A stretch of DNA of 64,000 nt from Candidatus Poribacteria bacterium (GTDB lineage Bacteria; Poribacteria; WGA-4E; WGA-3G): NCBI GenBank assembly GCA_965197475.1, contig CBDANF010000002.1:1344001-1408000 (forward strand), read 5' to 3'. The notes beneath the pieces were generated by a model. The model did not search any database and was not told the DNA's origin. It was given only the letters and a program-made list of their open reading frames with translations. A program made the position numbers and the translations under genes. This document shows, piece by piece, positions 4,476 to 64,000 of this stretch; position 1 is the stretch's first letter; each line of letters starts with the position of its first letter.

Positions 4476-4808
4476 AAGAAATACCTCATTTAGTTTCGGT
4501 AGGGGAGTAGTCTAAAGCAGCTAAGCAAATGGTAACCTCTGATTTTATGCCGTAGACCGCTTGTACACATCGCAGTGCTGGGCAATGTTTTTATATAGAA
4601 TACCATCATTTTTATGCCGATGTCAAGGCAATCACAAAAGTTGTTATTGCGAACATTAATCTCTGAATACATGTTTTCAGGCATAGCAGTAAATCCTTCT
4701 GAAAATTAAGTTTCTCATTTTTTAAATTTTTGCTATAATGAGGAAAGTTGCAAGATGGACTTGCAAGTTACGACTCATACTCACCCATAATAAGCAAGGA
4801 GGCTTGTT

Positions 4809-5267
4809 ATGTTCGGAAGGAAAAAAAGAATGACAGGAATGATTCCGACAATTAGTTCTGGGGTCGCAGGTCCCCTCGGCGTGTTACATCTCCCTCGATT
4901 TTGGTCTAAAGTATTGATGGATGCCAAGGGTGTCCTTCACGAAGACTACCCCGCATGCGGAATGGGGTATGATCAGATGGTGTTAGACGCACTTGGACTT
5001 GATAAGGACGCAACGCTAGCATATATCAGTGACAACTCACCTACCTACCCGCAATTTGAAGCATGGGTTTTAGAGCAGAGCGGTGGTAGTCTTGATACTG
5101 ATGCAGTCGCTAAGTTGAATGCTGATATTGAAGGTTATCATCATGATGACGATACCCGCACAAGCATTCTTGGCGCGAGCGGAATCGAAGACGACGGCAC
5201 TATTTTAGATGCTGTCAACCTCAACAACCTTGATGACTGGTATGAACTTCACGCCAGTTTAGGTTAG
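4809..5267 (+). CDS. DUF5069-like small protein
   Basis: 152 aa; 'GVLHLPRFWSK...YPACGMGYDQMVLDALG' resembles DUF5069; AGGAGG RBS before ATG 4809; upstream TGCTATAAT -10. Confidence 0.65.
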   Translation: MFGRKKRMTGMIPTISSGVAGPLGVLHLPRFWSKVLMDAKGVLHEDYPACGMGYDQMVLDALGLDKDATLAYISDNSPTYPQFEAWVLEQSGGSLDTDAVAKLNADIEGYHHDDDTRTSILGASGIEDDGTILDAVNLNNLDDWYELHASLG

Positions 5268-5273
5268 ACGTTT

Positions 5274-5321
5274 AGGCATCTCCATGTAGGGCGTGATGAA
5301 CACGTCCACATTGAGATGCCT
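5274..5321. terminator. Stem-loop between convergent genes
   Basis: aggcatctc...gagatgcct inverted repeat followed by a T-rich tract. Confidence 0.55.
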
Positions 5322-5336
5322 ATTTTGTCTTAATGG

Positions 5337-6395: not shown

Positions 6396-6435
6396 GATTC
6401 TAAATAATTCCTTATAATGAAAATAATCCCTTAAA

Positions 6436-6945
6436 ATGAAACAGTTACGAAATACAGCACTTAAACACTTTTTACAACAGTCTGGTTCTCCATCGATTGA
6501 TCTCGTTTTTGTTCTTCAAGACGTTGAAGATCCGGTTAACGTCGGGGCAACCTTCAGGATTGCCGATGCGTGCGGCGTTCGCGAGATTGTATTAGCTGGT
6601 ATTAGCGCGCATCCACCGAACCCGATGATCGCAGGTATCGGGCGCGGCACACATCGCCGAGTTCCATGGCACACAACAAAATATGCTGCTGATGCCATTA
6701 AAAAATATAAAGAAGATGGTTATCTCGCGTGTGCCTTAGAGGTAGCATCGGATGCTGTGCCTTATCATACAGTTGAATATCCTGAAAAAGTATGCTTGAT
6801 TGTCGGAAACGAGTATCGCGGCATTTCCCGACGAACTTTTGATGTCTGCGATACGGCAATCTATCTTCCAATGTACGGTAAAGTTGGTTCTTTGAATGTC
6901 CACGTCGCACTCGCTGTTGCTACATACCATATTTTACATAAATGA
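6436..6945 (+). CDS. TrmH/SpoU family RNA methyltransferase
   Basis: SPOUT motifs 'DPVNVGATFR', 'LIVGNEYRG', 'YLPMYGKVGSLNV'. Confidence 0.9.
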   Translation: MKQLRNTALKHFLQQSGSPSIDLVFVLQDVEDPVNVGATFRIADACGVREIVLAGISAHPPNPMIAGIGRGTHRRVPWHTTKYAADAIKKYKEDGYLACALEVASDAVPYHTVEYPEKVCLIVGNEYRGISRRTFDVCDTAIYLPMYGKVGSLNVHVALAVATYHILHK

Positions 6946-7126
6946 GAACATACGCAGTATCTATTTTATGTCAAGTGTTATTGCGTAAGTCCCAGGGACA
7001 TTCAATTCTCCAGTAGTTGCAACCTTCTGATCAAGGTCACTCCTCTGTCCGAGCAACCTCCCGGTCGCGACTAGACGGCTAAAACGCACAAAAAACCGAA
7101 AACTGAATGGCTCTGCGTAAGCCCTG
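6946..7126. repeat. Composite of degenerate MITE/IS ends
   Basis: tgcgtaagtccc and tgcgtaagccctg match the terminus of the 123-bp MITE (13766, 22375); ccgaaaactgaatggctctg matches the ISAs1 remnant end near 63855-63874. Confidence 0.5.
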
Positions 7127-7171
7127 ATTATAAAAAACAGCATAGATGTTTTTACTTTACTGCTTCAGAAT

Positions 7172-7450
7172 CTATTTTAAAGGATTTGGTACATCCAAAG
7201 GACTCCAAATGCCTTTTTCTTCTTCTATTTTCTGCATCAGATCTCTATATGCTGTGATCGCTTCATTCTCCTCCGAATATCTTGCTATGTTTACTCTTCT
7301 AATCTTGTCATTCTGTATTGGAACTAATGCAATGAGTGAAAAATAATCACTGTCAGTCGCAACAAGTATTTGCAAACACATATCAATATTAATTGCAGAG
7401 ACAACTGCATTATATTTTGTATCTTCTAAATCTGTTATAAACATTCTCAA
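7172..7450 (-). CDS. Small hypothetical protein (AT-rich)
   Basis: 92-aa ORF with an AGGAG RBS upstream of a TTG start. Confidence 0.5.
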   Translation of the reverse strand: MRMFITDLEDTKYNAVVSAINIDMCLQILVATDSDYFSLIALVPIQNDKIRRVNIARYSEENEAITAYRDLMQKIEEEKGIWSPLDVPNPLK

Positions 7451-7666
7451 TTATCTCCTAAAATAGCCCAGATTCCAATCCTCATGCGGATGATTGACTT
7501 ATATCCTCGTATTCTGTGGTTGCAAGGCACAATGTCGTGCTAACTCAATATGATTATGTTGTAATTTATGTTAAAAGTCAATAAAAATCGGTAATTACGG
7601 TAAGTAGGAGCGATCGCCAAATCGCGATACATTGTCTGAACAAGGATTCACAGTAAGACGTGTTGT

Positions 7667-10171
7667 TTACTCTTTCGGATTAAAGAGTTCTGGATCAATT
7701 TCAGCGTTGATGATAACGTTGCTGAAATGTGATTCATGGTGTGAGTTATCCTTTGTAATCGACTGATACGGAAGCATGATACCGTCCACATCCTTGTATT
7801 GCCCAAAGATTTTCAATACGTTCATTTGTTCCCCTTCAATCTCAAGCTGCACAAGATAGTGTGTTTTGTCGCTAATAAAGATTTTGAGTGATGCCCCGGA
7901 AGGTTGCTTAACACGCAGCACCGATGCGGTTCCATCTTTCACATTCTCTGTTCCCACATATTGCACAGGAACCTTGTTTTGCGCCAGCGTTTTCAGCAGC
8001 CATATCGGTTCACGGAACGCCATATCTTTATCGCCCTTAATTTGCGCTTTCTCTTGTTCAGCGGGCATTCGTTGAAATGTATCGCCGACCCCTATGTATA
8101 TCGCTTCACCGTCAGATAAAATGGTGTACTGTTCATTCTTGGTTGTATAGAAATCGGATCGATACTTATCAGGGTATAGGTATGCTTTCCCGCCGCCATA
8201 CATTTGCAGAGAACCATCTGGACGCCCTTGAAAGAGCTGATAATCCCGCACCATGTTTTTCACAGCGATTAGTTTTTCACGCCCGCCGTGTGCTGCAACT
8301 GCCTTTGAGACAATATCTTCGGCTTTTGGGTCTGTGTTTTCCGCATCAGTATTTTCCGCAGGGTTCTCAAACCTCACATCGGAAGATAGCAACATCTTTG
8401 TGGAAGACTTCGGACTAAAGAGTTCGGGGTCAATTTCAGCGTTGAGGGTGACTTCGGTAAAAAATATTTCATTCTGCCACTTGTGCTTTTCGATCCAATG
8501 ATGCACAAATTGAATGCCGTCTACATCCTTATACTGCTCTAAAGATATAACTGTGTTTTCGGGTCCGTCTGCAACCTCAACCTCAAACTGCAACTGCACA
8601 ACATAGTTTGTTTTTTGACTGATAAAGATTTTGATCGGTTTCCCTGAAGGTTGCTTAACACGCAGCACCGAAGCAGGCGCACCTTTGACATTCTTTGTTC
8701 CCAAATATTGCACAGGTATCTCGTTTTGAGCGAGGGTAGGCAACAGCCACATCGGTTGACGGAACAACACATCTTTATGGATCTCAATTTGAGATTTAGC
8801 TTCCGCAGGGGACATCTGTTCAAATTTTTCGCCTTTTGACGTATATATTGAGGTGCCATCAAATAAAAAGGTGGATGCCTCTTCTGCATTGTCAGTGTAG
8901 GCTTCGATGCGTAATTTATCACGATAAAAGACACTTTTGCCGCGCTTACCTTCTTCAATAGAACTATCCGAACGGCGTCTAAATACACGATAATTCATCA
9001 CAATGTTTTTCACTACTTGTAGTTTTTCAAGTCCGCCGTGTGCTGCAACCGCCGCCGCGATAATCTCTTTTGTTCTCGGATCAGCGTATGTTGCGAGATT
9101 TTCCGTGACCAGTTCATCTACTGCTTTTTCAAGGGCGGCCCCGGTGAGATGTGTCTTTCGGATAACGCCTTCACTATCAATCAGAAAGACAGCGGGAAGC
9201 GCGCGCACCTGATACATATCAACAAGTTTTGCTACACTGACTTGAGTATGAATCCGTGTGGTTTCCTCATTGTCTGCAGCATCTAAAACAGAGGGGTTCA
9301 ACGGGTCTACGTTGATATTGATAATCTGAAACCGTTGGTCTTTGTATTTTTCATGAACCTGTTTCAGAATTGGCGTGTCCGATGCGCCAAAATAAAGCAA
9401 CACCACCTGTCCCCAGCATAGATGCAAGGCGTGCCATTTACTTGTCATATCCTCCAACCAAAAATTGGGTGCCTGTTGACCTATCCATGCGTTGTGAACT
9501 TTGGGGATTTCACCTGTTCGTAAAACGCTACCAAGTTCAAGCATCCGCCGCGCAATCCGTGCCTGCAACCCGCCTGCAAACTTCGGATGCGTTATCAGTT
9601 TTCTATAGACCGCATCTGCTTTATCGTGCTGGTTGTGTTTGTCATGTGCCAACCCTAATTCCAGCAAACCCCGTTCAAGCGGGCTCCACCTTAACTTGTC
9701 CCACATTCTATCAGGATAATGCGTCACAACGATACGATCTGGCGTGGAATCCTTTATCAGTTTTTCAAGGACAGTGATTCCTGTTTCAATACGTCCTAAT
9801 TGCACCGACGCTCTGCCAAGATAGTAGTAGACTGCATCTATCTGTTCAGATGATGGATACGTATTGATAAAGTCGTTTGACATCGTAACCAACGTCTCTA
9901 ATAGTTCAGGATCGGTTGGGTCGGTGAGGTGCTTCATAAATGCGTGTATCGCTGTAATCGAAAGCGCGTTATATGCTTTATCCGTGGCACGTTCATCAAG
10001 GTTCCTTGGATTCACCTCGACATTTGCATCTAACTGCTGCGCATTGGTCGTGTTGACACTAAAGACAACTATCATCAGTAGTGTCAGAACACTGCTCAGC
10101 CATATACCCAATCTTATTTGTTTTCGGAAAAACATCGTGACACCTCCGTAAGTGCACATTTTAGTCATCAA
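7667..10171 (-). CDS. Secreted multidomain protein: TPR + TlpA/redoxin-like domain lacking CxxC + two tandem LolA-like (lipoprotein-sorting-type) domains
   Basis: Signal-peptide-like N-terminus (real start probably a few codons in); TPR-like helices; 'APNF...YQVRALPAVFLIDSEGVIR'; two repeats of 'AVAAHGG.EKL..VKN...YKDVDGI...NAEIDPELF'. Confidence 0.75.
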   Translation of the reverse strand: MMTKMCTYGGVTMFFRKQIRLGIWLSSVLTLLMIVVFSVNTTNAQQLDANVEVNPRNLDERATDKAYNALSITAIHAFMKHLTDPTDPELLETLVTMSNDFINTYPSSEQIDAVYYYLGRASVQLGRIETGITVLEKLIKDSTPDRIVVTHYPDRMWDKLRWSPLERGLLELGLAHDKHNQHDKADAVYRKLITHPKFAGGLQARIARRMLELGSVLRTGEIPKVHNAWIGQQAPNFWLEDMTSKWHALHLCWGQVVLLYFGASDTPILKQVHEKYKDQRFQIININVDPLNPSVLDAADNEETTRIHTQVSVAKLVDMYQVRALPAVFLIDSEGVIRKTHLTGAALEKAVDELVTENLATYADPRTKEIIAAAVAAHGGLEKLQVVKNIVMNYRVFRRRSDSSIEEGKRGKSVFYRDKLRIEAYTDNAEEASTFLFDGTSIYTSKGEKFEQMSPAEAKSQIEIHKDVLFRQPMWLLPTLAQNEIPVQYLGTKNVKGAPASVLRVKQPSGKPIKIFISQKTNYVVQLQFEVEVADGPENTVISLEQYKDVDGIQFVHHWIEKHKWQNEIFFTEVTLNAEIDPELFSPKSSTKMLLSSDVRFENPAENTDAENTDPKAEDIVSKAVAAHGGREKLIAVKNMVRDYQLFQGRPDGSLQMYGGGKAYLYPDKYRSDFYTTKNEQYTILSDGEAIYIGVGDTFQRMPAEQEKAQIKGDKDMAFREPIWLLKTLAQNKVPVQYVGTENVKDGTASVLRVKQPSGASLKIFISDKTHYLVQLEIEGEQMNVLKIFGQYKDVDGIMLPYQSITKDNSHHESHFSNVIINAEIDPELFNPKE

Positions 10172-51206: not shown

Positions 51207-53699
51207 TCAAAATTCAAGTGTTAGTCCAACATAGATAATACGCGGGAGTTGTGATATTTCGTCAGATTCCCATTCTTCAATTTCAATCTCTTCACCTTGA
51301 ATCTCAATCGTCGCTTCTCTAAAGATAAATTTTATCGTATTCTTGCGGTTGTAGAGATTCAGAATATCAAGGAATCCACCTATCTTCATGCCTCTAACGT
51401 TCCATTTATGACTGATTCTGAAATCTAACTTATGGTACGGTGTCAACTCGGCACGTAATTCCTCGTCAACACTTGCCAATAGCGGATTCAGTCCGCGGGT
51501 AACCGGATCTTGAATCAGGACGAGAGAACTAATCGGGACTTCAGAGGTGCCATTTAAATACTGCCATTTCACGCCTATCTCGAAATTTGACGTGAAGTTA
51601 TAGTTTGCGACAATACTTACGATATATGTGTTATCAAAGAGATAAGGTTGATAAGTAACATCAGGATTTTCTCGCCGCTCAGCGTGGGTGTATGCATAAG
51701 ATACCCATCCGAAGAATTTATCAGTGACCCGGTGACGTAAGAACGCCTCAACACCACCAACGTAAGCAGCACCTTGATTGAGATAGTTTGATACACCATC
51801 TTCTGTTGCTAATCTCCCTCCCGCAGAAGAAGCAGACTCCGGCTCGGATGTCGTTGAAACCTTATCTTTCGTTACTAATTTCTGCTCGTCCTTATAATAG
51901 GTAGCAAACTTGAATTCCGTTTGAGAGGTAAGATCATGTTCGATCTCCATGATATAGTGGCGTGCAAGACTGGATTTCAAATCTGGATTTCCGTTTTCTG
52001 ATAGCAGTTGATACGGTTTCGGACTCTGTTCATAGTTTCCGTATGCAAACCGAATATTGAAATCACTTGGAAGTTTGAAATTTACACTTCCTCTCGGTTG
52101 CACAGAAAGCTGTTCCGTCAAATCAAGGTAATCTAATCGTGTGCCAAGTGCAATCGAAACGGAAGGCAATGGGTCATACCGTGCTTGTAGATAGCCTTCG
52201 GAACGATAAAAATCGTGTCCAAATTCATAGTGTCTCTTTTCCAATTCTGTAACTTCGTAACGTGCTGGTCGACTCGTTCTGATTTCTCTCACACTATTGC
52301 CTTCAACAAAACGTGCCTCAATTTCAATACCTTCCCCGATGGGTTCATATTCGTAAGCTTGTAAGTCTTCAAAACTATTGGCTGGACTGAACGACAGAAG
52401 GAGACCCGATTCAAACTGCAGAGTGGGGTTTAATCTGTAGGATACATCTTCGCGGAGTGTCCAGACTGGCACTTTGACTTTAACGTCATAGTTATTGGTA
52501 AGTATCTCTTCGGCTACTAATTTACCGTCCTCCAGTTTAAATTCACCGTCTTCAAGCACATAGGCCACTACAAAAGGGTCTTCAAATTTTATATTGAGGA
52601 AATTGAAGGTGCGGGTAAATGAAAAATGGGATGTTAAATTTTCGGTAAAGTTTGAATGGAGATGGATGCCTTGTCCGGTAAAACCGTTTTTGAAATAGAA
52701 AGTACCTCTTTCAAGATGGGCATCTATAGAATCTTCTATTTCTTCCTCTCTAAAATGGAAATGGTCTGTTGCGGCAAAAGCGTTGAGTGTAAGATGATGG
52801 TTAGCTGTTAGTGGATAAGCAAATTTGAACTGATAATCTGAAAAATATGGGAATTGTTGCTCTGAACCTGTCTGTGCTTCAACAATCGGTCCTACAATGA
52901 AATCGAAGTAACTCCGACGTCCGGAAGCAGAGATATATCCTTTTTCCCCTATCCATCCTTCAAGCAATCCTCCAGAATAGAGTATATTTAGGTTGAACTT
53001 TCCATCCAACCTGTTTTCAATACTATCACGTGCATGGATGTCAAGCACCGCTTGCGAATCTAACCCAAATTGCGCTCCGTATCCACCTGCATAGATGTCA
53101 ATTTTCTCAATAGTTTCTGAGCTGATGGTTGACAGTAAACCACCCCAGTGAAAAGGGTATCCGAGTTGAGTTCTGTCAAGATAGTAGAGATTAGATCCAG
53201 GATCACTACCCCGAATATAGAGAACACCAAAGTAATCGTTTGGAATACCGATACTTGGAAGCGTGGTCAATCCTTTGAGTGCATCATTCATCACCCCAGG
53301 GATGCGGAGAAGTTCGCTGCCACGAATGTCTTTACGACTCACTGTTGGCGGAATGCGTTTCCCTTCAACGACGACTGTTTCTAACTCAAATACTTCACCG
53401 AGGGACATTTTCGCTTGTGTGGTATGTCCTGCGGTCACTTCAACAGTCGTTTTTGTTGGTGTAGTGAAGGAGGGATGTGTGATTGTGAGGGTGTATGTGC
53501 CGGGCGCAAGACCTGTGAACCAGACTTTACCGTCCGCATCACTTTTTTGACGTTCGTCTGTTTCAAGGATATGAACTTCTGCACCTACTAACGGTTCGTC
53601 TGTATCTCTGCTATAAACTGTGCCTTCAATTGTGCCTGTTTGAGAAAAGGCAGCTGAGGGGATTAGTAAAACCATTAGCAGGCAGATAAAACTTCTCAT
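51207..53699 (-). CDS. TonB-dependent receptor 1 with N-terminal carboxypeptidase-regulatory-like domain
   Basis: 'QTGTIEGTV', 'IRGSDPGSNLYYLD', 'PYHKLDFR', C-terminal 'LTLEF'. Confidence 0.9.
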   Translation of the reverse strand: MRSFICLLMVLLIPSAAFSQTGTIEGTVYSRDTDEPLVGAEVHILETDERQKSDADGKVWFTGLAPGTYTLTITHPSFTTPTKTTVEVTAGHTTQAKMSLGEVFELETVVVEGKRIPPTVSRKDIRGSELLRIPGVMNDALKGLTTLPSIGIPNDYFGVLYIRGSDPGSNLYYLDRTQLGYPFHWGGLLSTISSETIEKIDIYAGGYGAQFGLDSQAVLDIHARDSIENRLDGKFNLNILYSGGLLEGWIGEKGYISASGRRSYFDFIVGPIVEAQTGSEQQFPYFSDYQFKFAYPLTANHHLTLNAFAATDHFHFREEEIEDSIDAHLERGTFYFKNGFTGQGIHLHSNFTENLTSHFSFTRTFNFLNIKFEDPFVVAYVLEDGEFKLEDGKLVAEEILTNNYDVKVKVPVWTLREDVSYRLNPTLQFESGLLLSFSPANSFEDLQAYEYEPIGEGIEIEARFVEGNSVREIRTSRPARYEVTELEKRHYEFGHDFYRSEGYLQARYDPLPSVSIALGTRLDYLDLTEQLSVQPRGSVNFKLPSDFNIRFAYGNYEQSPKPYQLLSENGNPDLKSSLARHYIMEIEHDLTSQTEFKFATYYKDEQKLVTKDKVSTTSEPESASSAGGRLATEDGVSNYLNQGAAYVGGVEAFLRHRVTDKFFGWVSYAYTHAERRENPDVTYQPYLFDNTYIVSIVANYNFTSNFEIGVKWQYLNGTSEVPISSLVLIQDPVTRGLNPLLASVDEELRAELTPYHKLDFRISHKWNVRGMKIGGFLDILNLYNRKNTIKFIFREATIEIQGEEIEIEEWESDEISQLPRIIYVGLTLEF

Positions 53700-53853: not shown

Positions 53854-54076
53854 TTTACGCAATGAGTAGTTTTGGACTTGAGAAAAATTTTAAAAAATCG
53901 CTATAAAGCCTTGTGTCCACTGGGTTTATATGGTATAATATAGATAAGAAAATAGGGGGTTGGTAGCCCCCTAAATGAACACAAAAAGCGAGTTGCTTTT
54001 TGACGGTTCTAATCTTATCTGGTATTATATCAGAAATCCGTCAGAAAAAGCAACTCCTATTTCAAGGAGTTATCTG

Positions 54077-54958
54077 ATGGATTTGTTGAAGGTGATGGAG
54101 CGTTTTCCCGATCAAGAGAGTTGTATTTCGCATTTAGAGAAGATTCGGTGGCGAGGTAAACCTGTGTGTCCGCATTGTGAAAGCGATCATATAGGAGAAC
54201 GGACAGAAACAGAAATCGGTCGTATCGGTCGTTGGAACTGCCACGAGTGCCAAGTGAGTTTCAAGGTGACGTGCAGGTCGGTGTTTCACGGGACAAAGAT
54301 AGCGTTACAGAAGTGGTTTTTGGCTATTTCGTTGATAACGAATGCGAAGAAAAGTTTGTCAAGTCATCAACTTGCGCGCGATTTAGACTTGAATCAAAAG
54401 ACAGCATGGTATATCATGACTCGTATCCGTGCTGAAATGGCAAAGAAAGGTAACGTGCTACTACAAGGCATCATAGAGGCAGATGAAACTTACATCGGGG
54501 GTAAACCTCGTAAGCCTAATAAGAAGGAAGACCACGTGCCTGCCAAGCGTGGACGTGGAACAGAGAAAGACGCTATTATCGGGGCAGTACAGCGGGGCGG
54601 GAAAGTTGTAGCACAACTCGCTAAAGATTTGACAGGACGGACTATTTTAGACTTTATCCGAAGAGTCGTCAAAGTTGAGGATTCGGAGTTGATGACCGAT
54701 GAGTATAAGGCGTATCTCGCTATCGGCAAGGAGATGAAACACCATATCATAGATCATCAAACGCAATTTGTTGAGGGTGATGTCCACACAAACACAATTG
54801 AGGGGTTTTGGAGTCTACTCAAACGAGCTTGGTATGGAAGTCATCACCACTACTGGACTGAATATACGCCCCTGTATGTAGCAGAGGCGTGCTATAAATA
54901 CAACTATAGGAGCATTGACAGTATCTTTGATAAGTTTGTTAATGAAAGTATGCGGTGA
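54077..54958 (+). CDS. IS1595 family transposase
   Basis: Zn ribbon CPHC...CHEC; 'EADETYIGG', 'MTDEY', 'HTNTIEGFWSLLKR'; AAGGAG RBS before ATG 54077. Confidence 0.93.
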   Translation: MDLLKVMERFPDQESCISHLEKIRWRGKPVCPHCESDHIGERTETEIGRIGRWNCHECQVSFKVTCRSVFHGTKIALQKWFLAISLITNAKKSLSSHQLARDLDLNQKTAWYIMTRIRAEMAKKGNVLLQGIIEADETYIGGKPRKPNKKEDHVPAKRGRGTEKDAIIGAVQRGGKVVAQLAKDLTGRTILDFIRRVVKVEDSELMTDEYKAYLAIGKEMKHHIIDHQTQFVEGDVHTNTIEGFWSLLKRAWYGSHHHYWTEYTPLYVAEACYKYNYRSIDSIFDKFVNESMR

Positions 54959-54967
54959 TGGACACAA

Positions 54968-55240
54968 CTAAAGGTATGCCTTATCAATCTTGTTCTTTTT
55001 GTCATCAGGATTTGAGGGAAAATGCTGTGGAAGTTCAAAAGTTGGCTTTCCATCTTTCAGAGCATCGATCATGTCAAGAGCAAATTCCAACCTCTCATTG
55101 TCCGTGTCAAAAGGTTTCTGAATCACTACGCGAAAATTTGTATCAAGTTTTACAAGGGCGAGTTCTACAAAACTCTCTGTATGTAAGGCTAAAAGTGAAA
55201 AATCAACAGGATCGGAAGGCGGCTTGAATATTACCCACAT
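54968..55240 (-). CDS. Hypothetical passenger protein (90 aa)
   Basis: AAAGGAG RBS; inside the IS1595 TIRs. Confidence 0.6.
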   Translation of the reverse strand: MWVIFKPPSDPVDFSLLALHTESFVELALVKLDTNFRVVIQKPFDTDNERLEFALDMIDALKDGKPTFELPQHFPSNPDDKKNKIDKAYL

Positions 55241-55296
55241 GGGTTTAGTCTCCTTTGGGGTTAGAGGGGACAGAGTCCCCTCGTTGGTTGGAATTG

Positions 55297-55686
55297 CTAA
55301 TACCCGTATGGAGAATCAGCAGCTGAAATTAAAATTATCCAAAGTCCCACCATAGTGCCAGTTCCAATAACACATCCTATTGTAGCATGTGTTATTTGGT
55401 CGTTTTTCACAAGTTTTTGATAAATGCTTGTGTAATAAGCAACATATTCTGGTGATTTTCCAAGCAATTTTTCTGGTAGTACCGTTGGTGTGACAACATA
55501 CGCAATTAACATACCGGTAACACCAAGTAGACAACCAACAGTTCCCCATATTTGAGTGTTTGCAAGTGTTGCATCACGTCGTGCATCAAATATTGCTTGC
55601 GCAGCATCACTTGTTTGTTGTGCAAGTGTGAGATATGGCGTAGTGAATAACATCACAACCATTATAAACGACAAAGTTTTCATCAA
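55297..55686 (-). CDS. Hypothetical exported/membrane passenger protein (129 aa)
   Basis: Signal peptide, two Gly/Cys-containing hydrophobic helices, AAAGGA RBS. Confidence 0.7.
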   Translation of the reverse strand: MMKTLSFIMVVMLFTTPYLTLAQQTSDAAQAIFDARRDATLANTQIWGTVGCLLGVTGMLIAYVVTPTVLPEKLLGKSPEYVAYYTSIYQKLVKNDQITHATIGCVIGTGTMVGLWIILISAADSPYGY

Positions 55687-55753
55687 TGTTCCTTTTGTGA
55701 GGTAAAATGTGTATGTAGGGGATCAAAAGACCCCCTACATGTTTGCAAGCGGA

Positions 55754-55885
55754 TTATTTACACCGCTTGTGAGGTTTGACAGTTTCTTTCACCGTTGTGG
55801 CGGGACGGCGTTTGTCCGTGCCTTTGGGAAGGAACCGTCCATCTTTGGCATCGCGTACACGCGTGCCAGTGGCTTTTTTAGCCAT
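55754..55885 (-). CDS. 43-aa basic small protein (RDAKDGRF...RRPATTVKET)
   Basis: GAGGT RBS before ATG 55885; very K/R-rich. Confidence 0.65.
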   Translation of the reverse strand: MAKKATGTRVRDAKDGRFLPKGTDKRRPATTVKETVKPHKRCK

Positions 55886-56077
55886 AGTATACCTCACTTT
55901 GCTTGAGATAAATTGGTGCATAGCGTATTTCCAGTGCGTTATGCACTGTTCAAGCATATAAAATTGATACGTTAAACGGGTATCGTTCGTAGGTTCGTTT
56001 ACACCTTTCTATGGGTGAGGGCAGGACACAACACAAGGAGTGTTGCGATAGAAATCCTGCCCAACGAACTTGAGAAT

Positions 56078-56107
56078 AGTATAACATGGAAAGAATTTGA
56101 GTGTCAA
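56078..56107 (-). promoter_or_regulatory. Inward-facing promoter for the IS1595 passenger genes
   Basis: Minus strand TTGACA-N18-TATACT with TG extension, just inside the right TIR. Confidence 0.55.
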
Positions 56108-56157
56108 GTGAAAAATTTGAGAAAAAATTTCAAGTCCAAAACTACTCATTGCGTAAA

Positions 56158-56636: not shown

Positions 56637-57344
56637 TTGTCTAAACAAGTGAATGGAAATGATGGGACAAGACTAAAGATTGATACGGATCCACATTTGG
56701 AAGAGAACAGCAATACTGTTGAAATGCAGTCGGAAAGGGATATGGATGAAGCAACAAATCCGCCAATTTCACAGGATAATGCTGAATTACTCCAGTCGCT
56801 TTCGCTCACAGAAATAAATCAAACCTTGGCAGCATTGCAAGATCTGTTCGAAAAGCAAATTGCTCGGAACCAGAATCAGACCCAGATGTATGACAAATTA
56901 TATGCTGAAATGAAGGACTATAAAGAGAGTTTTTTACTTGAAGTGCTTCACAAACCGATTATCCACAATCTGATCCAACTTTACGATAGTTTTGTATCGC
57001 TTGAATCTCAACTTGATGACATTCTTATTGATAAAGAGGAGAATATTCTTTTGGATGAACTGTCACAATACCGGAAGAATTTGGAGAACTTCCGGTTTGA
57101 ACTGGAAGAGGTGCTATACCGCATGGACGTGACACCTTATAAGGACTCTCTGGACACGCTTGACCGACAGTTGCACAAAACGCGCAAGGTAATACCGTCT
57201 GATGATCCCAAACAGGATAAAAAAGTTGCGGAAGTTCACAAAATTGGGTTCTACTGGCGTGAAAAAGTGTTCCGACCAGAAGAGGTGACGATTTTCCGTT
57301 ATACACCCTCCATAGGTGAGAAAGGGGGTAAAACGGATGGGTAA
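56637..57344 (+). CDS. GrpE-like nucleotide exchange factor (specialised paralogue)
   Basis: Acidic N-terminus, coiled coil, C-terminal 'VAEVHKIGFYWREKVFRPEEV'; GGAGG RBS; overlaps the Hsp70 start. Confidence 0.85.
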   Translation: MSKQVNGNDGTRLKIDTDPHLEENSNTVEMQSERDMDEATNPPISQDNAELLQSLSLTEINQTLAALQDLFEKQIARNQNQTQMYDKLYAEMKDYKESFLLEVLHKPIIHNLIQLYDSFVSLESQLDDILIDKEENILLDELSQYRKNLENFRFELEEVLYRMDVTPYKDSLDTLDRQLHKTRKVIPSDDPKQDKKVAEVHKIGFYWREKVFRPEEVTIFRYTPSIGEKGGKTDG

Positions 57345-58931
57345 AGTTGTTGGAATCGATTTAGGAACTACATTTTCTGTGATTGCACACGTCAATGAAC
57401 ATGGGCAATCGGAGATTATCCCTAATTTAGAAAGTGATCTATTACCCCATCGGTGATTTTGTTTGAGGACAACCTCGTAACAGTCGGAAAAATCGCCAAA
57501 CAGAATGCCAGAGCGGTTCCTGAACAGATTGTAGAGTTTGTCAAACGTGAGATGGGTAAACCTAAAGCGGAATTCTTTCGAACATTTAATGCAAAGGACT
57601 ATTCCCCCGAAGAACTCTCCGCACTTATTCTCACAAAACTCAAGCAGGATGCTGAAGCATATCTGAATGAAGAAATTACGGATGCAGTTGTCACTGTTCC
57701 TGCCTATTTTCACGATGCTGAACGGGAGGCTACCCGCAACGCAGGAAAAATCGCTGGATTGAATGTTCTACAAGTTCTTAATGAACCTACTGCTGCTGCA
57801 CTTGCTTACGGCATGGATCAATTGGGCAGTAACCAAAATGTGTTTGTGTTCGACCTTGGTGGCGGGACATTTGACGTAACCATCATGAACGTTTCCGAAT
57901 CAGAAATTCAGATGCTTGCAACGAACGGTGATCACAGACTGGGAGGTAAGGATTGGGACGATAAAATTATCACGCACGTCGCTGAGATGTTTGAGATAGA
58001 ACATGGAGAAAATCCGTTGGAGGACCTTCACACCTATCAAGACATTCAACTGGATGCGATAGGCGCGAAAGAATCTTTGTCCTTGCGGCAGCGAGCATTA
58101 ATCGTTTGTGGATACAATGGCAAAACAACCCGTGTTGAATTGACACGCGAAAAATTCGAAGAACTTACTGCTGACTTGCTTGAAAGGTGTCGAACTTTGT
58201 GTGATGTTGTCCTTTCGGAAGCAGAAATGACTTGGACAGATATTGACAATATCCTATTGGTAGGCGGCTCAACTCGGATGCCTATGGTGCAGCAAATGAT
58301 TGCCGCAATCAGTGGGAAAGAAATCAATCCACATCAAGTTAATCCTGATGAAGTTGTCGCAATCGGTGCAGCAATTCAGGGAACACTCCGCCAGATATCC
58401 GAAGGAAGCACCGAAACCGTAGATATGCCTGACGCTGTCATTGAGCGATTCATTGGACCGGACGGTGCCCCAAAGGTGACAGTTACAGATGGTGCCACAC
58501 ATAATCTCGGACTTGTCGTCCTTAATTCCCAACGTGAATATATGATTCACGTCATGATTCCCAAAATGACTGCTGTTCCGTGCGAAATTGCGGATAAATT
58601 CTTGACGGTTGACCGCAATCAACCTTCAGTTTTAATTGAGGTAGTGCAGGGACTTGAACAGGACCAACTCAAGGATAAAATTGATCTATTTGAGGAATAT
58701 AAATTGGGTGAATGTACCCTTGAACTGCCCCCTGGGTTGCCGCAAGGATCTCCAATTGAGGTGAACTACAAATATAACTTGGACCAGAATCTTGAGGTGA
58801 CGGCAAAATCCCTCACGGATGATGGTCCTACAGCTGTTTATGATATCTATTCCATTATTGAAAGACCAACACTCAATGAAGAGGAAGTTGCGCAGGCACG
58901 AACAGATCTACAAGACCTTGTCGTTGAATAA
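57337..58931 (+). CDS. Hsp70/DnaK-family protein (non-housekeeping, lacks the helical lid); 1-nt frameshift near 57440
   Basis: ATG 57337 'MGKVVGIDLGTTFS', then after the shift 'ITPSV', 'TVPAYF', 'NEPTAAALAYG', 'FDLGGGTFD', 'LVGGSTRMP', 'NPDEVVAIGAA'. Confidence 0.92.
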
Positions 58932-59024
58932 ATAAGGTTTTGAAACGAAATTACCTTTTTGGGAACAGCATATTATTAGTACGCCTTCTGTCTTCCTCAA
59001 GTATGTGTCAAGGGAAATAAACGT

Positions 59025-60245
59025 ATGTCCAAGCGTGAGGAATTTATAACATTTCTCAATGAGCTCAAAATAGTTTCGCGTACTATTTCTGACGAACAGC
59101 GCAAAGGGCTTTTACAACGAGCAGTGCAGCATCATAACCTTTCTGTTGCGGAGGCAACTGAAATTCTGGGTACATCGGGATTAGTTGTTGGTGAAAACGT
59201 CAACTACTTTGAGATATTAAACCTCTCCATTGAAGACCTCCACAACTTAAATGAATCGGATATCAAGGCACGTGTTGAAACTTCACACAAAAAACTGTAT
59301 ACTGCTTCATTAATGGCGGGTGGTCGCCCCCGCTCCGATGGTAGAACAGAAGAACAGTGGCGGACGCTTTTGAATCAAGCGCGTGATGCGCTAAAAGAGC
59401 CACAAAACCGCCGCGCACACCTCGCTACCTTCCAGCATGGTGAAGATTTCATAGATGAGCCTCCAGTTCCTTTATATCTTGACAACATGGAACTTATCCC
59501 CGCAGGTGAATTTCAAATGGGAAGCAATGATGATGAGTCATTCAGTGATGAACATCCTATTCACACTGTTTTTCTTAACGCATTCTATATTGACAAATAT
59601 CCGGTGACGAATGCACAGTATAAGGCATTTGTAGATGCAAATCCGCAATGGAGCAAACCGCGTGGGTTCATAAAATTCATCCCTGCAAGATACCATGACG
59701 ACTATTACCTCCTCCACTGGAATAAGAACTACTACCCTGAGAGTAAAGCTGATCATCCGGTTGTTCACATTAGTTGGTATGCGGCGATGGCTTATGCAGA
59801 GTGGATAGGTAAGCGTTTACCGACAGAATCTGAGTGGGAGAAAGCAGCACGTGGTGGATTGGCAGGTCAAAAATATCCATGGGGAAATTTGATTGATACT
59901 GACATGGCAAACTTTGCCAAAAATGTTGGACAGACGACATCTATAGGGGAGTACCCCGCGAACGGATACGATTTATACGATATGGCGGGCAACGTGTGGG
60001 AGTGGTGCCTTGATAAATGGGATAATGGCTTTTACGAGTCTTCGCCAAGTACTAACCCGATCTCAGGTGACAGCGTAGATAGTATTATGGACAATTTTAC
60101 AAAATTTGAAACATCGCGTGTATTGCGTGGAGGCTCCTGGTACAATACTGCTGAAAACGTGCGAGTCACCAAACGTTCTGGGGCTCCGCCGGAGTACACG
60201 AATGCTAACATCGGTTTCCGATGTGTTCAATCTATTTCACCGTGA
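59025..60245 (+). CDS. Helical domain + J-like domain + FGE-sulfatase (SUMF1-like) domain protein, copy 1
   Basis: 'NYFEILNL...LLNQARDALKEPQNRR' J-like; FGE motifs 'IPAGEFQMGS', 'RLPTESEWEKAARGG', 'DMAGNVWEW', 'RVLRGGSW...GFRC'. Confidence 0.88.
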   Translation: MSKREEFITFLNELKIVSRTISDEQRKGLLQRAVQHHNLSVAEATEILGTSGLVVGENVNYFEILNLSIEDLHNLNESDIKARVETSHKKLYTASLMAGGRPRSDGRTEEQWRTLLNQARDALKEPQNRRAHLATFQHGEDFIDEPPVPLYLDNMELIPAGEFQMGSNDDESFSDEHPIHTVFLNAFYIDKYPVTNAQYKAFVDANPQWSKPRGFIKFIPARYHDDYYLLHWNKNYYPESKADHPVVHISWYAAMAYAEWIGKRLPTESEWEKAARGGLAGQKYPWGNLIDTDMANFAKNVGQTTSIGEYPANGYDLYDMAGNVWEWCLDKWDNGFYESSPSTNPISGDSVDSIMDNFTKFETSRVLRGGSWYNTAENVRVTKRSGAPPEYTNANIGFRCVQSISP

Positions 60246-60310
60246 TTTTTTGTTTCATTACACTTTTGGTCCGTGTGTGAACACACCAATTCTTAAAAAG
60301 AAGCAAATAG

Positions 60311-61610
60311 ATGTCTCAACGCGATGCGTATATAACCTTCATTAACGAGTTTAAAACGGTTTCACCGACGATCTCCGAAGAACAACGCAAAGGATTACTT
60401 CGTCGAGCAGTACAACAGCATGAGCTTTCTGTTGATGAAGCGTTTGAAATTCTGAATGCATCTGGATTGGTTATCGGTGAGCGGATAGATTATTTTGAGG
60501 TACTCGGTTTATCAATCTCAGATATTGAAACCCAAAGTGAATCGACTATTGTCAATAGCGTTGAGGTTGCACACAAAAAACTGTATACTGCTTCATTAAT
60601 GGCAGGTGGTCGCCCTCGCGCCGATGGTAGAACAGAGGAGCAATGGCGAATGCTTCTAAATCAAGCGCGTGAGACCTTGATTGATCCCCATAAAAGGCGC
60701 GAATACGTTGCTATGCTACAGCACGATGAGGCGGACTCGCTTTTAGAAGAGAAGCACCTCCTACCTTTGAACTATCTGATGTTGACAAAACAGACAGTCT
60801 GGAGTTAAGTCGTCAGATCGTTCCACCTGATGTGAATGTGCCGACTGACATGGTGTTCATCCCCGCAGGCGAGTTCCGAATGGGAAGCGATGACGCAGAA
60901 GCAAACGAAGACGAACATCCAATACACACTGTTTTTTTCAACGCGTTCCTTATGGATAAATACCCAGTGACCAATTCGGAATTTAAGGAATTTCTCAATG
61001 TTAACCCGCAGTGGCGGAAGCCAGAGTCATTCAAAGACTGTATTCCTATGGCTTATCACGATGGTGGCTACCTTAGTCACTGGGGCGACGAAACCTACCC
61101 GTACGGTAAAGGCGATCATCCGGTCACTCAGGTGAGTTGGTATGCAGCGATGGCTTACACACAATGGGTAGGTAAACGCCTGCCGACAGAGGCAGAGTGG
61201 GAAAAAGCTGCACGGGGAGGTTTCGTCGGGAAGAAGTATCCGTGGGGCGATTCTATGGATTCTAATACGCAAAGTAACACCTATAATTTAGACGATGCCA
61301 TCACGGTTGGCAGTTATTCTGCCAACAGATACGGTCTATATGACATGAGTGGCAACGTATGGGAGTGGTGCCTTGATGCGTATGATGCGGATTTCTATGT
61401 GAGTTCCCCACATAGAATCCATTTTCAGGTGTGAACAGCGTGGAGTGGGTCGTAGAACATTTCAGAAGTGTTAAGATTTCTCGCGTACTACGTGGAGGTC
61501 CTTGGGGCGTTGATTCTCAAGGTGCGCGGGTCTCTCACCGATTCAGAAGTAGTCCCACTGACACACTTCCTACTTTCGGATTTCGCTGTGCAATGGATAT
61601 TACATCATAA
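60311..61610 (+). CDS. Helical + J-like + FGE-sulfatase domain protein, copy 2 (frameshifts near 60750 and 61416)
   Basis: ORFs 60311-60808 and 60832-61434 plus a third-frame tail '...RVLRGGPW...FGFRCAMDITS*' reconstruct a paralogue of copy 1. Confidence 0.82.
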
Positions 61611-61670
61611 TGTATGTTTTTAACCTTTAACGCTGTTGTAAACCTGACTGACCATGTAAGGTAAACACAC

Positions 61671-63024
61671 ATGTCAAAACGTGATGAATTCATTGAGGTC
61701 ATAAACACCTTCAAAACTGTTTCTCTGAGTATTACAGATATACAACGGCGAGGGCTGCTGAAACAAGCGGTCCAGAATTACGCCCTTTCTGTTGAGGAAG
61801 CCTCAGAAATTCTGAAGTCTCTGGGGATGGTAGTCGGAGAAGAGGTAAACTATTTTGAAGTATTGGGTCTTTCAATAGAGAAGATTCAAGGGTTAGACGA
61901 ACAAACTATTGTGAACGTTGTTGAGGCATCTCACGATGAGTGTTATAGAACGTCATTGCGTGCGGGCGCGCATTCGTCCTGATGGTAAAACAGAAGAACA
62001 GTGGCGTAATATTCTGAACCAAGCACGTGATACCTTAATAGATGCCCAAAAGCGGCGAGAATACGTGGCGACATTCCTGCTACAAGCAGACGTATTAGCA
62101 GAAATATCTCTACCGCAAGATCGACCTCTTTCCGAAAATGAATTTCAGGACATAGAACCGATACCTTCAAATATCCCAGAACCAACGGTTCCAAATGCAG
62201 AAACGGATATAACTCCTGCAAGTGATCTTGAAACTGCCTCAAGTCCCGACATAACACGAGTGCCTCCTAATATTGATGCACCTACTGATATGGTGCTTAT
62301 TCCGGCAGGTGAGTTTCAGATGGGCAGCCAGGACGAAGATGCAAATGGCACCGAAAGGCGTGTGCATTCACTTTTCGTAGAAGCGTTTCTTATTGACAAA
62401 TATCCTGTTACCAATGCACAATATAAGATTTTTCTGGATGCGAATCCTCAGTGGCAGAAAAAGAGGATTGTTGAAATTTATCACGACGGGAACTACTTAA
62501 TAACTTGGAGTGGAAACAACTACCCTCGAGGTAAAGCAGACTATCCGGTAGTTGATGTGAGTTGGTATGCAGCAATGGCTTATACACAATGGTCTGGCAA
62601 GCGTTTGCCAACGGAAGCAGAATGGGAGAAAACCGCACGCGGTGGATTAGTTGGGAAAATATACCCATGGGGTGATGAAATTGATATGAGCATGGCGAAT
62701 TTTGGGATGCATGTCGGAAAAACAACACTTATTGGGAAGTATCCGCCTAACGACTACGGTGTATATGACATGGTGGGTAATGTGTGGGAATGGTGCCTTG
62801 ATGAATATGATCACAGCTCACAACGTCCAAACCCCGGTTTAATTGTTGACAGTATTAGTGAAATCACCAATAATTTTTTGAGTATTGAAACTTCTCGTGT
62901 AGTACGGGGCGGTTCTTGGGCAAGTAGCGAACGTGCCGCGCAAGTCGCTTACTGCGGGTGGGCTGCTCCAATTGTTACATACTACAGCTACGGGCTTCGA
63001 TGTGTAAAAGACACCACCTCTTAA
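61671..63024 (+). CDS. Helical + J-like + FGE-sulfatase domain protein, copy 3 (frameshift near 61970)
   Basis: ORFs 61671-61982 and 61918-63024 join at a GC dinucleotide run to give SLRAGARIRPDG; Pro/acidic linker; full FGE domain. Confidence 0.82.
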
Positions 63025-63329
63025 ATCACTTTCCTTTAGATATATTACATCTCCCATTGAACATATAAAGATTCTACGAAGTTAAGAGAATCTTCCCTTA
63101 TTTACTGTTTTGCCTCATCCTATGCTGCAATTCGGTTATTCAATACAAGTCTACCACTCCGTTTAGAATTCCACATCGGAAAGGAGTAAAAGATGCAACT
63201 TTTTCTGGTGACAAAAGGCATTGATGGAGATACTTTGAAGTCAGTTCTAAAATTCTTTGTAACTTTGCGCTAAATGGTTCACTCGGTAAGTATTTGAGTT
63301 ATATTTTCCATGCTGGTGCCATAAGCACC

Positions 63330-63728
63330 TAATACCAAATTAACGGGATTAGTCTTATTTTTCTGGGCAGACAGCGCGCTTACAAAGCGCGCCTACCGAA
63401 TGGGATCAAGTTAATTTGGTATAATACCATATCTAATTGACGATTTGTCATAATAACCTGTAGGTTGGATAGAGTTTACGAAACCCAACAACTGAATGGC
63501 AAATAGGGTTTCGCTCCGATCTACCCTTATGTGTCAATTTAAGGATTTTCCGAATATGAGAAATGCTCTTCAGTCCCGTAGGGACTAAATATAGGACAGT
63601 CTCAATCATCATGTCTATTGAGAAGTGTTCATAATAACACGGACATTTTCTAAAGTTGACACATAAGGGTTTCGCTTTGATCTACCCAACCTACGAACTA
63701 ATGCAATATAATCACTTAGAAATGGTAT
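63330..63728. mobile_element. Stacked MITEs: inverted 93-bp family copy (63330-63423) followed by an element with IS630-B-like ends (63424-63728)
   Basis: ataccatatctaattga...ttagaaatggtat ends; interior resembles the repeats at 37600-37845. Confidence 0.7.
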
Positions 63729-63734
63729 AATGTG

Positions 63735-63874
63735 TGCATTACGAAATGCGGTGATCAGTCTTTCGCGCACATCTGGATACACTGAAATAGCATATTCACT
63801 CCGATATTTTGCCGCACATCCAGAGCAAGCACTCAAACTCATCGGGAGAGATACCGAAAATTGAATGGCTCTGA
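63735..63874 (+). pseudogene. 3' end of an ISAs1 family transposase
   Basis: Reads ALRNAVISLSRTSGYTEIAYSLRYFAAHPEQALKLIG, parallel to the tail of the remnant at 27060-27170. Confidence 0.6.
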
Positions 63875-64000
63875 AGATATTAGGACAGAATCTAAGCAAA
63901 ATGCGTGGGTTTTCCATCAAGACTAGTGCTATTGCTTTCTTCCCAATATGTCTTTAAGCCTTCTTTGCCTTTCTTTGCTGCCCAAGTGTTTAACGCTTTT

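Follow-up and report, generated by a model that had tools for sequence, protein, structure and literature searches.

A candidate accessory Hsp70 set of Candidatus Poribacteria, with its own GrpE-type gene and tandem J-like/FGE genes, and a decaying copy of it in one genome

Introduction

Specialized sets of an Hsp70 and its J-proteins are few in bacteria. In the known ones, HscA with HscB and HscC with DjlB and DjlC, the Hsp70 works only with its own neighboring J-proteins, not with DnaJ, and does not use GrpE, as set out in the sections of a review that treat these paralogs (Mayer 2021, PMC8215388). Here we analyze a locus at positions 56637 to 63024 of a 64,000-nucleotide stretch of DNA from a sponge-associated Candidatus Poribacteria bacterium (GenBank assembly GCA_965197475.1, contig CBDANF010000002.1, positions 1,344,001 to 1,408,000; hereafter, the window), in which a gene for a GrpE-type exchange factor is followed by an Hsp70 gene and by three paralogous genes that join a J-domain-like segment to a domain of the formylglycine-generating enzyme (FGE) family. 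A preliminary description, made from the sequence alone, had proposed a self-contained Hsp70 machine with lectin-fold adaptors at this site.

The locus resembles the HscA and HscC sets in having an extra Hsp70 paralog whose C-terminal part is shortened or altered, and HscB is the best solved match of the J-like profile. It differs from them in that a dedicated GrpE-type gene is coupled to the Hsp70 gene in all 42 loci collected here and in its partner proteins, which have neither HPD (His-Pro-Asp) nor HPE motifs, stand in tandem arrays of up to seven per locus within the flank counted, and carry lectin-like domains. A second relative is the theme in which an Hsp70, a GrpE, and a DnaJ-FNIII protein are encoded beside GAP1-N2 GTPases, which was described as a conflict system in the relevant part of Kaur et al. 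(2020, eLife, PMC7159879). In both, a nonhousekeeping Hsp70 comes with a GrpE of its own and with a J-domain protein that also carries a binding or repeat domain. In that account, however, the GAP1-N2 theme is built around a GTPase and found in Actinobacteria and Firmicutes, and its J-protein joins a true DnaJ domain to FNIII or TPR, whereas in the present locus HPD is missing from the J-domain, to which FGE is joined. Pfam searches found no GTPase, FNIII, or TPR domain in any piece of the five genes, and the flanks hold an insertion sequence (IS) element and unrelated genes.

In MoxR-vWA ternary systems, a constant adaptor domain joins variable modules that are combined with a nucleoside triphosphate-driven chaperone and a vWA domain, and the passages on FGS (PF03781) in the same two papers propose it as an intracellular lectin-like sensor with caspases as common partners (Kaur et al. 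2020/2021, PMC7159879, PMC8195603). The likeness to these MoxR-vWA and STAND-FGS systems lies in a sister locus with an Hsp70-vWA fusion and a caspase; the differences are that the ATPase here is an Hsp70, that the constant adaptor domain is J-derived, and that there is no diversity-generating retroelement (DGR). A lidless DnaK-like domain with ∼50% identity to DnaK is fused to EACC1-protease modules in the portion of a preprint that concerns them (bioRxiv 2025.11.14.688446, PMC12642450). That unit, too, is a lidless DnaK-like part tied to a protease-effector defense module, comparable to the caspase-bearing sister locus, but it is a fusion protein, and the same portion reports neither GrpE nor J-like adaptors. 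Canonical DnaJ(HPD)-FGE fusions share the two-domain build of J plus FGE; in contrast to the proteins described here, they keep HPD, lack an N-terminal helical domain, and are annotated only generically. No study of these fusions was found in the literature searched. The main text of PMC10410713 contains none of the words "FGE," "sulfatase," and "formylglycine," and J-domains without a full HPD were excluded from its data set. Likewise, no published account of an array of GrpE, lidless Hsp70, and J-like/FGE genes was found in main-text literature, whose supplements, or surveys of domain architectures, could list canonical J-FGE proteins. The gene order is conserved across related genomes and seems to be undescribed.

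Results and Discussion

Gene content of the locus

The open reading frame (ORF) listing, together with stop-to-stop reading, gave five co-oriented genes on the plus strand between 56637 and 63024, and their order (GrpE-like, Hsp70, and three paralogs) and positions agree with the preliminary description. The first gene (56637 to 57344, plus strand) is intact and encodes a divergent GrpE-type nucleotide exchange factor of 235 amino acids, matched by PF01025 at an E value of 6.6e-11 (42.6 bits, cutoff of 25.8; profile positions 18 to 163 of 165). This length assumes the TTG start set by the ORF tool, and the true start is uncertain. Against the NCBIfam GrpE equivalogs, the best score was 18.3 bits (cutoff of 176), which does not place the protein among the housekeeping orthologs. 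The Hsp70 gene starts at an ATG at 57337 and the GrpE-like gene ends with a TAA at 57342 to 57344, giving the 8-nucleotide (nt) overlap reported before.

The Hsp70 gene is split in the window. An N-terminal fragment of 39 amino acids (57337 to 57456, plus strand) carries the first ATP-binding motif (PF00012 positions 1 to 30, E value of 1.6e-4) and then runs into a TGA. The main frame of 497 amino acids (57438 to 58931, plus strand) completes the nucleotide-binding domain, and an insertion, a linker of altered sequence, the beta-basket, and a short tail follow; PF00012 matched this frame at an E value of 1.3e-109, with profile positions 32 to 376 of 599 strongly covered.

The three paralogs, here called adaptors, share one build: a helical domain of ∼56 residues, a J-like segment of ∼80 residues, a variable acidic/proline-rich linker, and an FGE-sulfatase domain (PF03781). 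This build agrees with the preliminary description. Adaptor 1 (59025 to 60245, plus strand) is intact, with 406 amino acids divided into the helical domain (residues 1 to 56), the J-like segment (58 to 137), the linker, and the FGE-sulfatase domain (154 to 401). Adaptor 2 (60311 to 61610, plus strand) has two frameshifts and lies in pieces at 60311 to 60808, 60730 to 61434, and 61416 to 61610, and adaptor 3 (61671 to 63024, plus strand) has one frameshift inside the J-like loop, with pieces at 61671 to 61982 and 61915 to 63024. The PF03781 E values were 2.2e-64, 5.4e-55, and 3.3e-60 for adaptors 1, 2, and 3, respectively.

Conservation and distribution of the set

One genome per species was scanned with two GrpE-like proteins, which yielded 42 loci, nearly all labeled Candidatus Poribacteria, with one labeled Latescibacteria and a few labeled "uncultured bacterium." The content of each was determined by searching six-frame ORFs with the window proteins and a hidden Markov model of the J-like segment. 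A short lidless Hsp70 directly follows the GrpE-like gene in 42 of the 42 loci, mostly overlapping it, and at least one J-like ORF lies downstream in 41; the exception stops inside the Hsp70 at a contig end. Thus, the linkage of adaptor genes to grpE and hsp70 on which the preliminary description relied extends to related genomes. The loci contain 157 J-like ORFs, 128 of which also carry FGE.

Two types of locus were distinguished. The 32 window-type loci consist of GrpE, Hsp70, and then one to seven helical-J-like-FGE genes, counted within a 10-kb flank beyond which the arrays often run. The remaining 10, second-type, loci have an Hsp70-vWA gene upstream in six cases and caspase matches in four, and their adaptors, of ∼1,030 to 1,045 amino acids, combine the J-like domain with an unassigned domain, several hydrophobic segments, and FGE, in that order. 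By a scan with a crude hydropathy window, four of these long proteins have 4 to 7 membrane segments, and 5 of 105 soluble-type adaptors were flagged. The earlier claim that the targets would be cytoplasmic therefore need not hold for all members of the family. In four second-type loci (L037, L040, L041, and L044), the place of the Hsp70-vWA gene before the GrpE-like gene is taken by a protein of ∼611 to 636 amino acids that has a single hydrophobic segment, at the N terminus, and matches FGE in part.

At an E value of ≤1e-5, the J-like profile matched 60 of 176 genomes of the phylum, including 33 of the 39 other genomes of the window's genus and 22 of 65 of a sister genus; in nine other families, it matched none of 63 genomes. 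The same-genus genomes that gave no match include single-contig ones, and single genomes hold up to 13 J-like matches. When the profile was run against 1.84 billion representative proteins, 108 were found at an E value of ≤0.001. Pfam assignment of 80 of these (very short fragments and giant repeat proteins were left out) gave FGE-sulfatase in 20, ankyrin in 8, WD40 in 3, and peptidoglycan-binding (PG-binding) domains in 3, and DnaJ was not among the 25 commonest families listed for the 80. A word-based search with residues 1 to 150 of adaptor 1 gave 227 matches among 534 candidates; among the 120 matches listed, 107 carry PF03781, 5 carry WD40-type propellers, 3 carry PF08334, 1 carries PF04290, and no family was assigned to 4. 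With the C-terminal half of the lidless Hsp70 as the query, 218 proteins were matched; of the 120 listed, most have 523 to 547 amino acids and a few have fewer, and Poribacteria are the only organisms named among them. So patchy and narrow a distribution argues that the set is an accessory, lineage-restricted system.

A lidless Hsp70 in addition to a housekeeping set

The genome from which the window derives (5.7 Mb, 3 contigs, 92.7% complete) encodes a canonical DnaK at C3:2289447 (891 bits) and a canonical GrpE at C3:2927870 (E value of 2.5e-41), directly followed by a canonical DnaJ at C3:2928553. With all three present elsewhere, the proposal that the locus is a dedicated set and not the housekeeping operon stands. 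The Hsp70 scored below the DnaK equivalog cutoffs (378.6 versus 648 bits and 367.6 versus 822 bits) and below the NCBIfam HscA equivalog (293.4 versus 708.55 bits); the NCBIfam matches included no HscC model.

The protein has the nucleotide-binding domain with ATPase motifs and the beta-basket that characterize the Hsp70 family, albeit from a gene that is split in the window. An alignment with the genome's DnaK and with solved DnaKs shows the basket to be retained, as are the motifs for phosphate binding and catalysis. Compared with DnaK, ∼19 residues are missing in lobe I, an insertion of ∼25 residues precedes the linker, and the linker itself, conserved and hydrophobic in DnaK, is changed. 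The helical lid is absent: the protein stops ∼25 residues past the basket and is ∼531 amino acids long, versus 641 for the canonical copy. Right after the basket, the tail (58860 to 58928 in the window, and in the 42 relatives) has a short conserved Leu-x-x-Leu-x-Val/Ile-Glu stretch, which could be a docking motif, e.g., for the three-helix domain of the adaptors.

The J-like module and its presumed contact with the Hsp70

The label "J-domain-like" had been given to the second segment of the adaptors. In Pfam searches, PF00226 (DnaJ) reached only 14 bits with adaptor 2 (E value of 0.058, cutoff of 27.8), over the last helix only, and did not match adaptor 1. A profile of five sequences matched HscB (4it5) over its full length (positions 2 to 81) at an E value of 0.015. 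An AlphaFold2 model of residues 1 to 150 of adaptor 1, built from 48 aligned modules, had a mean predicted local distance difference test score (pLDDT) of 83 and showed a three-helix N-terminal domain followed by helices at residues 61 to 64, 69 to 73, 77 to 98, 109 to 124, and 126 to 140. In a Foldseek search of the PDB with this model, J-domains (of Thermus DnaJ, DNAJB8, Tid1, CbpA, Ydj1, and others) held nearly all of the best 23 ranks listed, with probabilities of 0.75 to 1.00, ∼77 to 107 aligned columns, target-normalized template modeling scores of up to 0.73, and a best E value of 0.057; the best of these matches had a probability of 1.00 over ∼80 to 98 columns. The model, the Foldseek matches, and the HscB profile match all point to the four-helix J fold despite weak E values. 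In the ESM Atlas, the best match of the same residues scored 0.82, where the tool regards 0.9 as more than a lead, and one DnaJ cluster scored 0.78. The earlier label is thus apt for the fold but not for the sequence, in which Pfam stays below its cutoff and the HPD motif is absent (5 of 5 sequences examined and all 48 aligned modules).

The position of HPD is occupied by a nearly invariant Pro-Arg-x-Asp-Gly (PRxDG) loop, followed by a conserved Trp-Arg and a helix with Leu-Asn-Gln-Ala-Arg. Across 105 full adaptors, the PRxDG loop and the third helix form the most conserved stretch, with a mean entropy of 0.5 to 0.9 bits versus 2 to 3 bits in linkers and surface loops. A constant, selected surface of this kind is what a docking site would look like. 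Because HPD is missing, classical stimulation of the ATPase cannot be assumed.

A change was also seen on the Hsp70 side. The residue before the Asn-Glu-Pro-Thr (NEPT) motif is Gln in at least 90% of the 42 lidless Hsp70s and Arg in the three DnaKs examined; the Hsp70-vWA paralog retains Arg. By offset to Escherichia coli DnaK (5nro_A, where query position 87 corresponds to chain position 108), and assuming no intervening gap, this position is residue 167. In the contacts listed for HPD in the part of Mayer (2021, PMC8215388) on DnaK, D35 bonds with R167 and Q378, and H33 bonds with the linker backbone. With HPD lost in the J-like module and Arg replaced by Gln in the Hsp70, both sides of the classical contact have therefore changed together, which would be consistent with an insulated pair.

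The Hsp70 of one related locus (L007) was modeled in complex with the module of its second adaptor and ATP, with an alignment supplied for either protein. The score was 0.59, against 0.02 for the best of three controls; the runs agreed in at least 95% of contacts, and the pLDDT of the partner was at least 78. Of 80 solved complexes, 58 attained the mark applied, as did 2 of 110 mismatched pairs, and scores of ≤0.60 that still reached it comprised 7 of those 80 complexes and both of the passing mismatches. We take the prediction as weak support for docking; since a DnaK/J-domain complex has already been solved, the pass may reflect likeness and not binding.

Noncatalytic FGE domains without signs of DGR diversification

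Among solved chains, the FGE domains of the adaptors are closest to true formylglycine-generating enzymes (E value of 1e-38), with SUMF2 (1y4j) at 1.5e-34. They have the FGE fold (PF03781) and lack the catalytic cysteines: in alignments with 6s07, 2q17, and 6muj, a gap of 3 residues takes in the position of the first catalytic Cys, and a different residue stands in place of the second. The Cys pair that follows a Gly-Gly-Ser motif, which we take to be the catalytic pair of FGE, was found by pattern in 0 of 105 adaptors. The adaptor FGE domains as catalytic enzymes were rejected on both grounds, and we take them to be binding modules of C-type-lectin-like fold. The genome has 23 FGE-sulfatase matches, and none of its ORFs shows the catalytic Cys-pair pattern.

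The preliminary description drew a parallel with the DGR targets TvpA and LdtA. TvpA (2y3c) is a distant match to the FGE domain (E value of 1.7e-14), but the parallel fails here: the genome, at 92.7% completeness, gave no match to the reverse transcriptase family PF00078, and the 3' 200 nt of each adaptor gene have no second genomic copy except for one 51-nt match at 80%. DGR diversification was rejected, there being neither a reverse transcriptase nor a template-like repeat of the three 3' ends.

When FGE domains were clustered (the cropping pattern kept 90 of 109 sequences, and the distance cut was arbitrary, so the result is used only for this statement), the large clusters held one member per locus at a fixed place in the array; in the largest, 14 loci contribute one member each, in every case the first of the array. 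At the chosen cut, neither adaptor 1 nor adaptor 2 joined any other sequence, and the group of adaptor 3 contained five others. With a single member from each locus and a constant place, the large clusters argue that the array would be an old set of distinct specificities and not a rapidly shuffling one. The idea of interchangeable adaptors thus holds for the module, which is fused to FGE, ankyrin, WD40, and PG-binding domains, but not for the array, where orthologous classes keep their place.

Related loci in the same genome

A second locus (L006, C2:898779-914409, with genes at 779 to 16409 of C2:898001-917000) is intact and larger than that of the window. Its genes encode, in order, a caspase with CARDB (968 amino acids), Bflower, an Hsp70-vWA fusion (693 amino acids), a GrpE-like protein, a lidless Hsp70, three J-like proteins, and a membrane-anchored FGE. 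The GrpE-like protein and the lidless Hsp70 are, respectively, 46% and 70% identical to those of the window. The J-like domain is N-terminal in the three J-like proteins and 39% identical to that of the window; it is fused to ankyrin repeats in two of them and otherwise to an unassigned domain with membrane segments. One of the three also has the helical domain, 49% identical and placed after the J-like domain. Given this other order, the two N-terminal domains of the adaptors are separate, mobile units.

Elsewhere, L051 (C3:1371269-1374044, positions 5266 to 8041 of the locus, minus strand) has two intact helical-J-like-FGE genes and neither Hsp70 nor GrpE nearby. A gene for an IS1595-type transposase lies ∼2 kb from these adaptors, and L051 hints that IS-mediated rearrangement split an array. 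At L050 (positions 3630 to 4679; C3:1691630-1692679), a protein of 349 amino acids joins a canonical J-domain with HPD to FGE-sulfatase, with no Hsp70 or GrpE adjoining. Most of its best ∼75 matches listed carry both PF00226 and PF03781, and several are labeled Poribacteria. The adaptor family plausibly derives from such canonical HPD J-FGE fusions.

A working model and its alternatives

Our preferred reading, which we judge to be somewhat better than an even call, is that the set is a lineage-specific, accessory Hsp70 machine of Candidatus Poribacteria that is directed by adaptors and insulated from the housekeeping chaperones, with a dedicated GrpE, a lidless DnaK paralog, and tandem adaptors as its parts. 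The exchange factor would be translationally coupled to the Hsp70. Each adaptor fuses a constant module (the three-helix and J-derived domains) to a variable binding domain, usually a noncatalytic FGE of C-type-lectin-like fold. The J-derived domain is proposed to bind the Hsp70 of its own set where J-domains usually dock, between the linker and the nucleotide-binding domain, by way of the co-changed interface (PRxDG for HPD, and Gln for the DnaK Arg that binds the HPD aspartate), and this interface would keep the set apart from DnaK and DnaJ of the housekeeping system. A specific ligand or client may then be bound by the FGE domain, or by whichever domain forms the C-terminal part, and its capture and release by the lidless basket would be cycled as ATP is hydrolyzed and GrpE drives exchange. 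In the sister version, which is larger, the cycle might be coupled to the Hsp70-vWA fusion and the caspase-like protease.

Four features distinguish such a set: it has its own exchange factor, the lid is lost, HPD is lost and yet the stretch is the most conserved, and the adaptors form receptor-like arrays. If the module docks and acts, it would be a natural insulated J/Hsp70 pair and show how J-proteins set the specificity of an Hsp70.

A broader proposal is possible but doubtful. Here, the set would be an Hsp70-based surveillance system in which FGS, ankyrin, and WD40 receptors, some of them membrane spanning, are linked, through a J-derived domain that lacks HPD, to a lidless Hsp70 and a GrpE of their own; the full version would add the Hsp70-vWA protein and the caspase, the whole would be an Hsp70-centered counterpart of the MoxR-vWA ternary systems, and PRxDG with the Arg-to-Gln change would be a natural orthogonal J/Hsp70 pair. 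The sister version resembles chaperone-gated surveillance (conflict) systems. From this resemblance in its caspase and Hsp70-vWA genes, and from the analogy with MoxR-vWA ternary systems and FGS sensors, we infer that the set may serve surveillance or conflict and that the window locus may have a role in defense. Should the caspase/vWA version prove to be a conflict system, Hsp70 would count among the ATPases that gate bacterial immunity. The set is of interest to researchers on chaperones and on bacterial immunity, whereas the copy in the window, as a decaying remnant, has a more modest value.

Several observations weigh against these readings. With its Hsp70 broken in this genome, the window gives no sign that the set functions. 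None of the Foldseek E values reached 0.001 or less, the complex score lies in a weak band and came with no interface returned, and the J-like module may only tether or may not act on the Hsp70 at all. The adaptors of L051 and the J-FGE protein of L050 have no adjoining Hsp70, and the linkage is therefore not obligatory. Searches of PADLOC-DB 2.0 with the GrpE-like protein and adaptor 1 gave no match, and the Hsp70 matched only PDC-M61B (E value of 0.0019). Finally, fixed adaptor classes and the lack of a DGR would fit stable ligands better than an arms race.

The main rival, which we regard as unlikely, is that the locus encodes a chaperone set for sulfatases: FGE domains like SUMF2/pFGE would recognize unfolded sulfatase precursors, and the J-like module would hand them to the Hsp70, so that they stay competent for maturation and export. 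Poribacteria are rich in sulfatases, and pFGE, which lacks the catalytic cysteines, still binds them. The kinship of the adaptor FGE domains with true FGEs and SUMF2 and the number of FGE-sulfatase matches in the genome fit this view, and several conserved adaptor classes would fit several classes of client. The absence of the Cys pair from all 105 adaptors speaks against it, however, and it is weakened by fusions of the same J-like module to ankyrin, WD40, PG-binding, and multipass membrane proteins and by the caspase and vWA proteins of the sister locus, none of which has an obvious link to sulfatases.

It is still less likely, indeed very unlikely, that the lidless DnaK paralog assists the DnaK of the housekeeping set, either as a cochaperone or in the manner of an Hsp110-like exchange factor, and that its neighbors are incidental. 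Truncated DnaK derivatives of complex bacteria have been proposed, by analogy with Hsp110, to act on DnaK (2026 review, PMC13580251, in the section on these derivatives), and the missing lid of our paralog would agree with such a role. Against this, the paralog has its own translationally coupled GrpE in all 42 loci and its own J-like partners in 41, it retains the ATPase motifs and the basket, and the residue that meets the J-domain has changed together with the J motif.

Decay of the window copy

Only the GrpE-like gene and adaptor 1 are intact in the window. The preliminary description presented five genes and overlooked four frameshifts, one in the Hsp70 gene, two in that of adaptor 2, and one in that of adaptor 3, so that three of the five are broken. 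The frameshifts were checked against Logan contigs of four public runs aligned to the locus, three of which (X1 to X3) contain it. X2 and X3 share a sample and X1 comes from a different one, all within a single study; the window may have been assembled from the sample of X2 and X3, which are therefore not independent of it.

A 1-nt deletion between 57439 and 57440 (plus strand) breaks the Hsp70 gene in this strain, as shown by the comparison of the X1 contig with those of X2 and X3. The X1 contig (depth of 86.5) carries one more G behind 57439; this puts the Hsp70 gene back in frame, and the restored frame runs into a DnaK-like Arg-x-Thr-Pro-Ser-Val stretch present in all relatives. The X2 and X3 contigs equal the window, ungapped, across this site, and the contigs of all three runs do so across the three shifts of adaptors 2 and 3. 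Sequencing error was rejected as the source of the frameshifts, each being found in read-derived contigs of two or three runs, with an intact Hsp70 allele in X1. The frameshifts are real; that of the Hsp70 gene is polymorphic between populations, and the inactivating deletion is strain specific. Since the reads carry the frameshifts and one sample has the Hsp70 frame intact, the window copy is a decaying, partly dead remnant in an IS-rich symbiont genome. Adaptor 1, the intact one, could at most partner the Hsp70 (70% identical) of the intact second locus. In the related loci L015, L030, L031, L035, and L048, too, some adaptors are divided between two ORFs, and decay of array members therefore recurs. 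Among the runs listed as containing the window locus, none was of RNA. In X1, the GrpE-like gene has an in-frame 6-nt insertion behind 56681, in its N-terminal region.

That the frameshifts are tolerated or recoded and the window locus is fully functional as it stands is most improbable: the three shifts of adaptors 2 and 3 do recur in all three runs that cover them and are therefore not very recent, but in the 42 related loci, most J-like ORFs carry the entire module in one uninterrupted frame (full-length adaptors obtained there number 104), the Hsp70 shift, a simple 1-nt indel, is absent from X1, and the genome is full of near-identical IS copies, in keeping with ongoing gene decay.

Flanking sequences

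Both flanks proved to be as the preliminary description had them, with IS1595 on one side and a repeat resembling a miniature inverted-repeat transposable element (MITE) on the other. Upstream, a copy of an IS1595-family element (53857 to 56156, approximate ends, plus strand) contains a transposase ORF at 53975 to 54958 (PF12762, E value of 1.1e-35, plus PF12760), followed by small passenger ORFs. By BLASTN against the genome, the element, from ∼53857 to 56156, has many copies at 99.6 to 100% identity; its end (∼56156) lies ∼480 bp from the GrpE start. Downstream, the MITE-like repeat (63329 to 63428, no strand assigned) is ∼95 to 100 bp long and has many genomic copies: a query of 976 nt (63025 to 64000) gave 133 BLASTN matches, most of them on query positions 305 to 404, at 81 to 99% identity. 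Past this repeat lie unrelated genes. The passenger ORFs of the IS1595-family element include one for a membrane protein of 129 amino acids (55297 to 55686, minus strand). Farther upstream, 51207 to 53699 (minus strand) encodes an outer-membrane receptor of 830 amino acids with CarboxypepD_reg and Plug domains and a signal peptide, which is unrelated to the locus.

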